Shown one piece after another: positions 24,626 to 24,657 of a stretch of DNA of 64,000 bases. A model generated the notes under the pieces. The model saw only the letters and a program-made list of their open reading frames with translations, was not told where the DNA came from and did no database searches. The stretch is from Paenibacillus sp. (GTDB lineage Bacteria > Bacillota > Bacilli > Paenibacillales > YIM-B00363): the NCBI GenBank assembly GCA_032117095.1, contig JAULZZ010000122.1, positions 168 through 64,167 of the forward strand. The letters are read 5' to 3'. Positions within the stretch are counted from its first letter, which is position 1, and each line of letters starts with the position of its first letter. The position numbers and the translations under genes are program-made.

Positions 24626-24657
24626 TTGACATCGTTTTTTTTTTTTTTTTGTATAAT
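24626..24657 (+). promoter_or_regulatory. TTGACA / TATAAT promoter whose 20-nt spacer is mostly a T16 homopolymer
   Basis: TTGACA 24626-24631, tcg, T16 at 24635-24650, g, TATAAT 24652-24657. Confidence 0.6.

Follow-up and report, generated by a model that had tools for sequence, protein, structure and literature searches.

Homopolymers placed between the −35 and −10 hexamers of a promoter are textbook expression switches in small-genome, host-restricted pathogens of the genera Neisseria, Haemophilus, Helicobacter, and Mycoplasma. In Neisseria, such spacer tracts precede opc (poly-C), porA (poly-G), and fetA (poly-C), all of which encode exported or surface products. The vlp genes of Mycoplasma hyorhinis combine a highly conserved promoter, 5′ untranslated region, and signal-peptide region with divergent mature regions and in-frame coding repeats. 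The T tract of Helicobacter pylori sabA is located outside the interval between the hexamers, either adjacent to −35 or upstream of it, and works together with a coding CT repeat. To our knowledge, promoter-spacer switches are hardly documented in Bacilli-type Firmicutes, where hypermutable runs lie mostly in coding regions. As summarized from Citti & Wise 1995, a poly-A tract in every vlp promoter confers independent ON/OFF switching (PMC10502178); the vmm promoter of Mycoplasma mycoides has TA repeats in its spacer (PMC10502178), and the sabA poly-T tract (T13–T19) is length-heterogeneous within single strains (PMC2715451). Here, we describe a run of 16 T residues within the spacer of a consensus promoter in the 64-kb stretch of contig JAULZZ010000122.1 shown above (hereafter the window), upstream of a gene for a secreted protein with the fold of formylglycine-generating enzymes (FGEs). 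On balance, we favor the view that this run is one of a set of slippage-prone promoter-spacer switches, carried vlp-like by each member of a dispersed paralogous family, and we predict that the window copy is OFF or weak.

The promoter of the window copy has the following parts.

24626–24631, plus strand: −35 hexamer TTGACA, perfect sigma-A/sigma-70 consensus (direct reading, regular-expression search)
24632–24651, plus strand: promoter spacer of 20 nt, TCG (24632–24634), T16, and G (24651) (direct reading)
24635–24650, plus strand: T16 homopolymer, the proposed slippage-prone switch element (regular-expression search and Tandem Repeats Finder agree)
24652–24657, plus strand: −10 hexamer TATAAT, perfect consensus; transcription would start near 24663–24666

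Both hexamers, the T16 run, and the 20-nt spacer had been placed at exactly these positions in the initial annotation, as direct reading, regular-expression search, and Tandem Repeats Finder confirmed. The arrangement stands out from its surroundings: TTGACA-N14–21-TATAAT occurs once on both strands of the window, against 0.06 occurrences expected from dinucleotide shuffles, and a run of T12 or longer likewise has a single site (0.07 expected). The lengths of A/T runs in the window decay geometrically (38 runs of 7, eight of 8, and one each of 9 and 10), with 16 as the lone outlier and an A10 as the runner-up to this longest homopolymer. The window appears to be draft or metagenome-assembled genome (MAG) sequence, in which the count of 16 T could be off by a base or so; that the spacer holds a long uninterrupted T run is not in doubt.

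With the spacer at 20 nt, no alternative −35 hexamer stands at 16–18 nt (the hexamers there are CATCGT, ACATCG, and GACATC), nor is there an extended −10, since the G at −13 abuts TATAAT and does not form TGn. Because a properly spaced −35 and an extended −10 are both missing, a generic promoter scan with 16–18-nt spacers leaves the T16 site uncalled. From the known 17 ± 1-nt spacing rule, we infer that the window copy is off or weak as sequenced.

Other roles for the run were considered and rejected. As the tail of an intrinsic terminator it would need a GC-rich hairpin, none of which lies ahead of it, and a terminator scan makes no call there; as an UP element it would need a downstream promoter, and there are no hexamers 3′ of the run. 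Use of the site by a divergent minus-strand gene finds no credible minus-strand open reading frame (ORF) to the left. For an invertible-promoter switch, there is no recombinase among the Pfam-scanned ORFs; no dedicated search for flanking inverted repeats was made.

We compared the spacer across eight promoters, namely that of the window and those of seven homologous copies from four other assemblies.

Window: TCG-T16-G, spacer 20 nt
L023: TCG-T14-G, spacer 18 nt
L024a: TCG-T14-G, with TTGACG as −35 hexamer, spacer 18 nt
L024b: TC-T14-G, spacer 17 nt
L026: TCG-T10-G, spacer 14 nt
L108: TCG-TTC-T10-G (interrupted run), spacer 17 nt
L109: TCG-T9-ATATA (interrupted run), spacer 17 nt
L110: TCGTTTTATATTTTTCG (interrupted run, T4ATAT5C), spacer 17 nt

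The −35 hexamer is TTGACA in seven of the eight copies and TTGACG in the eighth, TATAAT is present in all eight, and the T run is the sole indel-variable site of the promoter core (alignment A2). Uninterrupted runs of T16, T14, T14, T14, and T10 set spacers of 20, 18, 18, 17, and 14 nt, respectively, whereas all three interrupted runs sit at exactly 17 nt. This is the pattern expected if uninterrupted runs were unstable and 17 nt were the selected spacing; tracts with an interruption would be the more stable ones. The 14-nt spacer belongs to the syntenic orthologue in a close relative (L026), which occupies the same position between the penicillin-binding protein (PBP) gene and accD and has T10 against T16 in the window, with nearly identical promoter flanks. 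The two loci share 91.7% nucleotide identity over 5.6 kb, and their AccD and Pyk proteins are 97.6% and 98.3% identical, respectively. A second apparent orthologous pair (L023 and L108) shows T14 against TTCT10.

Homopolymers of ≥10 nt number seven in ∼112 kb of clade sequence, and six of these are this promoter spacer. The ORFs are intact in all copies, including both with an out-of-range spacer, which argues against simple pseudogenization. The conserved promoter and its length-variable run bear the comparative signature of a hypermutable tract. The slipped-strand phase-variation switch proposed in the initial annotation thus gains support from conserved hexamers and flanks and from T10 against T16 in a relative of ∼92% identity. 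Tract length, whose comparison had been set beforehand as a test of that proposal, is not invariant, with spacers of 14, 17, 17, 17, 17, 18, 18, and 20 nt among the eight promoters. The accompanying prediction that loss of two to four T would restore optimal spacing also holds, since TCG-T12 to TCG-T14 give 16–18 nt, and three paralogues carry T14 with spacers of 17–18 nt.

The same lengths could instead reflect a static spacer in slow drift, inherited from an ancestral promoter with a T-rich spacer of 17 nt, in which the differences are ordinary fixed indels and the 20- and 14-nt promoters have decayed at one locus under relaxed selection. With four of the eight copies at exactly 17 nt and two at 18 nt, most look like ordinary promoters, and the promoter of the upstream ORF is also T-rich (17-nt spacer with T7), which may be a genome habit. 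Both outliers occupy the same syntenic locus, and the comparison rests on assemblies rather than population-level sampling. We nevertheless regard a static spacer as rather unlikely: the 6-T gap between orthologues with ∼92% identical flanks, in a core otherwise free of indels, points to an unusually high indel rate, and the two copies with out-of-range spacers still have an undamaged ORF, the invariant hexamers, and the ribosome-binding site (RBS). Uninterrupted runs of T10–T16 are also maintained in five copies, though single interruptions would stabilize them, and mononucleotide runs this long are known to be hypermutable (PMC2715451).

Several further points weigh against a slippage-prone switch. 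The sample is small, comprising eight promoters from about five assemblies, five of them from one metagenome, and the sharing of one locus by the 14- and 20-nt alleles could mean that the promoter is decaying there. Every sequence compared is an assembly consensus, a form in which long homopolymers are liable to error and from which within-population heterogeneity and reversibility are extrapolated, and both the start site and the effects of 14-, 18-, and 20-nt spacers are predicted from the general spacing rule of 17 ± 1 nt. Several contigs (L025, L026, and the P0006 contig) end close to the cassette, and these ends were considered as breaks at the T run; they lie 50–230 nt away in shared repeat sequence, and so provide no evidence of tract heterogeneity. 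Finally, a literature search on the sample accessions yielded nothing on the environment, and neither host immunity nor phage pressure nor any other selective reason for a switch can be named.

A sequencing or assembly artefact would go further, with a true tract of about T13 (17-nt spacer) everywhere and a constitutive promoter. The window is probably draft or MAG sequence, the comparators are all metagenome or Logan assemblies, and every platform is prone to errors in long homopolymers. However, the differences of 4–6 nt among T10, T14, and T16 exceed the typical consensus errors of ±1–2 nt, three independent loci of one assembly agree on T14 and a fourth in that assembly has T10, and other homopolymers of the same contigs show a normal short-length distribution. 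These observations make an artefact very improbable.

A spacer of 19–20 nt between perfect hexamers is also the hallmark of MerR-family target promoters. In a regulator-dependent promoter of this type, the T16 allele would be inducible through a DNA-distorting activator and not phase-OFF, and both the 20-nt spacer and the perfect hexamers of the window fit. We judge this the most improbable of the readings considered, because the homopolymeric spacer offers no dyad-symmetric operator, the neighboring genes (for an unknown secreted protein, accD, and accA) include no MerR-like or other regulator, and paralogue spacers of 14–18 nt are incompatible with one fixed regulator geometry.

The T-run promoter is part of a larger shared 5′ cassette, in which a terminator-like hairpin, an A-rich block, TTGACA, the T-rich spacer, TATAAT, a leader of ∼250 nt, an RBS/start block, and the signal peptide follow one another (alignment A2). 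Apart from the promoter, its noncoding elements in the window are the following.

24463–24528, plus strand: terminator-like element, CCCCCTTCCTCC ... GAAGGG followed by T6, degenerate in the window copy
24596–24602, plus strand: conserved A run in a CCAAAAAAA block (A7 in the window), ∼25–30 nt upstream of the −35 hexamer, in seven of eight aligned copies
24658–24912, plus strand: 5′ leader of ∼250 nt, common in blocks to the paralogues, with a purine-rich 3′ end (alignment A2)
24895–24902, plus strand: RBS GAAGGGAG of the FGE-like gene, within the block GAAGGGAGYAWGYAGACGATGAA, which contains the RBS and the start codon

The contigs of the homologues place the same upstream DNA at the head of eight gene copies in unrelated neighborhoods.

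L023: cassette copy adjoining HSP90
L024: tandem pair of cassette copies after ribonucleotide reductase
L025: cassette copy before the S10 ribosomal operon
L026: cassette copy at the syntenic PBP/accD position (accD/pyk)
L108–L110: cassette copies on three short contigs

At least five copies lie in one metagenome assembly (ERZ28593350), presumably from a common genome. Within the fetched loci, the block GAAGGGAGYAWGYAGACGATGAA occurs only in the nine family copies, all of which have it, and in L027, another contig carrying the L026 gene. Averaged over pairs of copies, nucleotide identity is 85.7% over the signal-peptide codons, against 66.8% over the mature region. Promoter, leader, RBS, and signal peptide form one unit across genomic contexts, which supports the initial annotation in assigning the promoter to the FGE-like gene at 24913–25938, and the promoter is under selection. 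Beyond these loci, GTDB species genomes and JGI metagenomes were scanned with the family alignment, and all proteins recovered were distant ones with an FGE domain (≤37% identity) that lacked the cassette; a scan of IMG/VR for the RBS/start block gave 0 matches, and blastn of the cassette against plasmids gave no match.

The terminator-like element is kept in the window, L026, L024 (twice), L110, and partly L109, ∼130–190 nt upstream (alignment A2). In four of five copies, it is a GC-rich hairpin followed by U6–7, with folding energies of −26 to −30 kcal/mol and z-scores of −2.3 to −3.8; the window hairpin is weaker (z-score −1.7) and folds into an alternative hairpin. The element is missing in L023 and L108, both of which have a divergent gene upstream. 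Its probable role is to shield the cassette from read-through of a co-directional upstream ORF, and the conserved A run may act like an UP element.

Within the leader, an early strong Shine–Dalgarno (SD) sequence (GAAAGGAG, 24675–24682) lies ∼15 nt from the 5′ end and is followed by a short upstream ORF with its ATG at 24686. In the window (24675–24767), the short ORF after this SD is Cys-rich (MRCEIEIPKEHPACVCVSFATAMYVGA), and an SD with a nearby start recurs in several paralogues. A conserved leader peptide was rejected, as neither start nor frame of the short ORF is conserved (L024b has no ATG and L108 has ATG-TGA); it may be a translated upstream ORF or merely conserved RNA sequence. A structured leader RNA or riboswitch is likewise unsupported: RNAalifold on four full leaders gives a covariation term of −1.5, and the leader 3′ block in nine copies has a consensus energy of only −0.8 kcal/mol and no supported consensus structure. 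The leader matches no Rfam family even at E ≤ 10 beyond chance-level hits, and over the whole window only tRNAs reach the Rfam threshold.

The gene downstream of the cassette promoter and its product have the following features.

24913–25938, plus strand: coding sequence for a secreted FGE-fold (C-type-lectin-like) protein of 341 amino acids (PF03781 FGE-sulfatase, E 2.9e-13)
24913–25002, plus strand: signal peptide MKSGKSNQLKRMAIAAVCVGMIGSGGLVQA, of the type cleaved between VQA and K, the most conserved part of the family (alignment A1)
25003–25041, plus strand: in-frame 12-nt tandem repeat AAACCTGTTGTA, 3.2 copies with 100% matches (Tandem Repeats Finder), encoding KPVVKPVVKPVVK (KPVV repeats)
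25740–25905, plus strand: hypervariable C-terminal segment, about residues 277–331, just before the conserved GFRLxKNVK end

An exact look-up of the window protein returned no record. We found 41 homologues, with 55% as the best identity in that search; identities of the closest ones span 40–58%, and they have an almost identical N-terminal signal peptide. The protein of the syntenic orthologue is only 40% identical, against ∼98% for the neighboring housekeeping proteins. Read by eye, the signal peptide ends in AIAAVCVGMIGSGGLVQA ahead of the K at an AxA-type cleavage site and has no L-x-[GAS]-C lipobox, and no anchor motif was recognized in the protein. The Sec-type signal peptide bears out the earlier description as an exported protein: the product is predicted to be secreted, and the sequence does not reach as far as surface-bound. 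The 12-nt repeat, which directly follows the signal-peptide cleavage site, is expanded in the window copy alone, being single-copy or absent in the paralogues, and is a possible site of size variation, although its copy number was not seen to vary.

The resemblance to FGE/SUMF1 holds in part. PF03781 is matched; the closest solved relatives, however, are other proteins. A search of the family profile against the PDB gives CarF (5aoh, E 9e−32) and Treponema denticola variable protein 1 (TvpA; 2y3c, E 3e−26) well ahead of true FGEs (E about 5e−5). Foldseek on the AlphaFold (AF2) model likewise ranks CarF (E 2e−13), TvpA, and then PvdO and FGEs (FGEs E ∼1e−4). Residues 50–280 of the model are confident, whereas the signal peptide/linker and residues 280–329 have low pLDDT (predicted local distance difference test) scores. 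Catalytic FGEs have a conserved pair of catalytic cysteines, located C-terminally, that bind copper; in the 21-sequence family alignment (A1), the mature domain has no invariant or near-invariant cysteine, and what follows the (R)GGS motif is the hypervariable segment. No sulfatase domain was found among the 38 larger window ORFs scanned against Pfam. Because the mature domain has no conserved cysteine, the scanned ORFs include no sulfatase gene, and the protein is exported and has many paralogues, we judge that the product is not a catalytic FGE and is FGE-like at the fold level only.

The hypervariable segment has no nucleotide similarity to any paralogue, though both of its flanks match, and it is indel-rich in alignment A1. 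TvpA and Mtd are FGE-subclass C-type-lectin-fold proteins of diversity-generating retroelements (DGRs), and their variable ligand-binding region is C-terminal, before the constant last strand (PMC5006420). By analogy, the segment in the window protein, which lies in the same topological position, is presumably ligand-binding. A local DGR was considered and rejected. Blastn of the 3′ 500 nt of the gene against the window and related loci found no template repeat (TR), only paralogue matches outside the hypervariable part; the Pfam-scanned window ORFs contain no RVT domain, the open frames of the window lack a YxDD motif, and the called genes of L023, L024, and L026 include no reverse transcriptase (RT). 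The variability is seen between paralogues and not between a variable region (VR) and a TR, and one TR cannot have given rise to the paralogue segments, which contain indels relative to one another and cannot be aligned. A DGR may still lie elsewhere in the genome. Adenines are scarce in the segment (a fraction of 0.20, compared with 0.32 over the gene as a whole); the signature of DGRs is mutagenesis directed at adenines.

Anatomy and product together suggest how the slippage-prone switch would operate. Slipped-strand mispairing during replication of the T run would add or remove bases and thereby shift the distance between the −35 and −10 hexamers. Copies at 17 nt would be transcribed, those at 16 or 18 nt more weakly, and those far from 17 nt, such as the window copy (20 nt) and its syntenic orthologue (14 nt), would be silent or nearly so, with further slippage expected to reverse either state. 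Each paralogue would switch independently, giving combinatorial expression of different binding proteins, and, in the copies that have it, the terminator ahead of the cassette would prevent read-through from expressing a copy that is OFF. Three features of a contingency locus are present: a repeat above the slip-capable threshold of about 9 nt (T16) between the hexamers, length polymorphism, and an exported product. The product class also fits a contingency locus, being secreted with a conserved signal peptide, a divergent mature part, a hypervariable segment, and an in-frame repeat.

Tract length might also tune transcription gradually, as a rheostat or a structural element acting through DNA rigidity or curvature, perhaps with the upstream A-rich block, instead of as a binary switch. 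A rheostat-like role has reportedly been proposed for the H. pylori sabA T tract. The length variability of that tract is itself documented (PMC2715451), spacers of 17, 18, and 18 nt would give graded output here, and the A run upstream is conserved. This is a quantitative variant of the slippage switch and not a true alternative, and at 14 and 20 nt the hexamers would be ∼100° out of phase, where near-silence is expected; we consider a purely graded role improbable.

The DNA of the window (49% GC) belongs to the core chromosome of a Bacilli-type Firmicute. It contains pts genes, a LacI-type regulator, a class A PBP, accD-accA-pyk, ppk/ppx, citZ-icd-mdh, fumarase, phoR-phoP, and a cluster of 17 tRNAs, in an order that we take to be the one known from Bacillus. 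Between the PBP gene and accD lie an unannotated gene for a secreted HExxH protein (22603–24327) and then the FGE-like gene (24913–25938). The real start of the former ORF (22603–24327, plus strand) is probably near 22795. It has no Pfam or NCBIfam match, and its signal-peptide-like N-terminus (MYARRRHHWTWIVCLLLGSGIVPVKHAEA) and HExxH motif (IMHEFRHLKHGE) suggest that it may be a secreted zinc metalloprotease. Its promoter reads TTGACA-acgaatttttttggtat-TATGAT, with a 17-nt spacer containing T7, and the close relative lacks the ORF at the syntenic locus. On the other side of the FGE-like gene, ∼150 nt 3′ of it, the A10 run that is the second-longest homopolymer of the window (26087–26096) lies in intergenic DNA and precedes two small unannotated minus-strand ORFs (26229–26540 and 26553–26918) with no family matches. 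A T9 run is located at 47595.

Two repeat families were seen in the intergenic DNA. One is a palindromic element resembling miniature inverted-repeat transposable elements (MITEs) or repetitive extragenic palindromic (REP) sequences, ACACGGATTAAAAACG ... TTTTTAACCAATnGG ... TGTATTCAAACnGTGTTTCGTAT, which recurs close to several FGE-like cassettes, raising the possibility that the cassettes have spread or been rearranged with it.

Window 21872–21975; L023:5617–5715; L024:5530–5640 and 7110–7215; L110:20–75: MITE/REP-like element

The other, of ∼105–115 nt, looks like another dispersed repeat family; it occurs after accA (window 28930–29034), after pyk (window 30948–31062), and at L026:1887–1999, with 86–89% identity. 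The 17 tRNA genes (45839–47440, plus strand) lie downstream of phoR-phoP, and the window has no rRNA genes. A YhgA-like putative transposase (PF04754, PDDEXK-type) is encoded at 1622–2617, and the same family recurs on the contigs of the relative as PDDEXK_2 and PDDEXK_9 genes (L023 and L024). The window end (61054–64000) carries an LplA-type lipoate ligase gene and then two further ORFs. In the relative (L024:1–6000), ribonucleotide reductase and the tandem pair of FGE-like cassettes come after LplA and two PDDEXK_2 genes. Because the LplA region of the relative leads to this cassette pair, the source contig may end just short of further family members, possibly at a repeat-induced assembly break.

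If slippage at the cassette promoter is confirmed, the locus would extend the spacer-homopolymer mechanism to a Bacilli-type Firmicute and tie it to a whole family of secreted FGE-fold binding proteins, a scaffold that DGRs use for massive variation. It would provide a tractable example of bet-hedging over a binding-protein repertoire, with a consensus sigma-A promoter portable to Bacillus subtilis reporters. The signature TTGACATCG-Tn-GTATAAT, together with the invariant RBS/start block, would serve for finding further members, and the label "formylglycine-generating enzyme" would be misleading in the annotation of these genes. More tentatively, and with more doubt than conviction, we suggest that a walled, Bacillus-like Firmicute from environmental metagenomes uses vlp-style combinatorial phase variation, with at least 5–9 dispersed paralogues, each under an autonomous, insulated cassette of terminator, T-run promoter, leader, and signal peptide. 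These cassettes would stochastically switch secreted TvpA/CarF-like binding proteins with ligand-binding tips that are hypervariable from copy to copy.

Among described proteins, the carbapenem intrinsic-resistance protein CarF (5aoh) is the best structure match by both profile and fold, and it is likewise a small exported FGE-fold protein without FGE chemistry. The two differ in that identity is only ∼22% and in that CarF does not come from a phase-variable paralogous family; it is encoded by a single gene within an antibiotic biosynthesis cluster. TvpA and Mtd represent ligand-binding, non-enzymatic uses of the FGE fold. TvpA is the closest solved match in fold and sequence after CarF, and the hypervariable C-terminal segment before a conserved last strand is shared. 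Unlike these DGR proteins, the family described here has no TR or RT in the 64-kb window or the related loci, and its paralogue segments are unalignable, in contrast to VRs derived from one TR. If the more tentative, combinatorial reading is true, it would be a retroelement-independent counterpart of a DGR, in which a germ-line repertoire of binding specificities is sampled by promoter slippage, in place of a single gene that an RT mutagenizes.

On the side of the promoter, sabA has a promoter-region poly-T of similar length; here, the T run itself constitutes the spacer and is not paired with a frameshifting coding repeat. The Neisseria genes opc, porA, and fetA and the M. mycoides vmm gene share with this locus a repeat between −35 and −10 that sets hexamer spacing and hence would set the level of transcription, but they are single genes in host-restricted pathogens, whereas here one cassette is present on at least eight family members. 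The vlp family of M. hyorhinis is the functionally nearest analogue. As summarized in PMC10502178, it is a multigene family in which each member has its own A/T-tract promoter, comparable with the eight copies of the present cassette and their variable T run; here, too, conservation is higher in the signal peptide than in the mature part, and the window copy contains an in-frame repeat of 12 nt. The differences are that the host is a walled, Bacillus-like Firmicute with ∼49% GC and not a mollicute, that the genes are dispersed and not mainly in one cluster, that the product has a Sec-type signal without a lipobox and an FGE-fold/C-type-lectin-like domain in place of a repetitive lipoprotein, and that switching is here a prediction from tract length. 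The locus thus represents not a new mechanism but an unusually clean, previously undescribed candidate instance of a known one, in an unexpected lineage and tied to a DGR-type binding scaffold.

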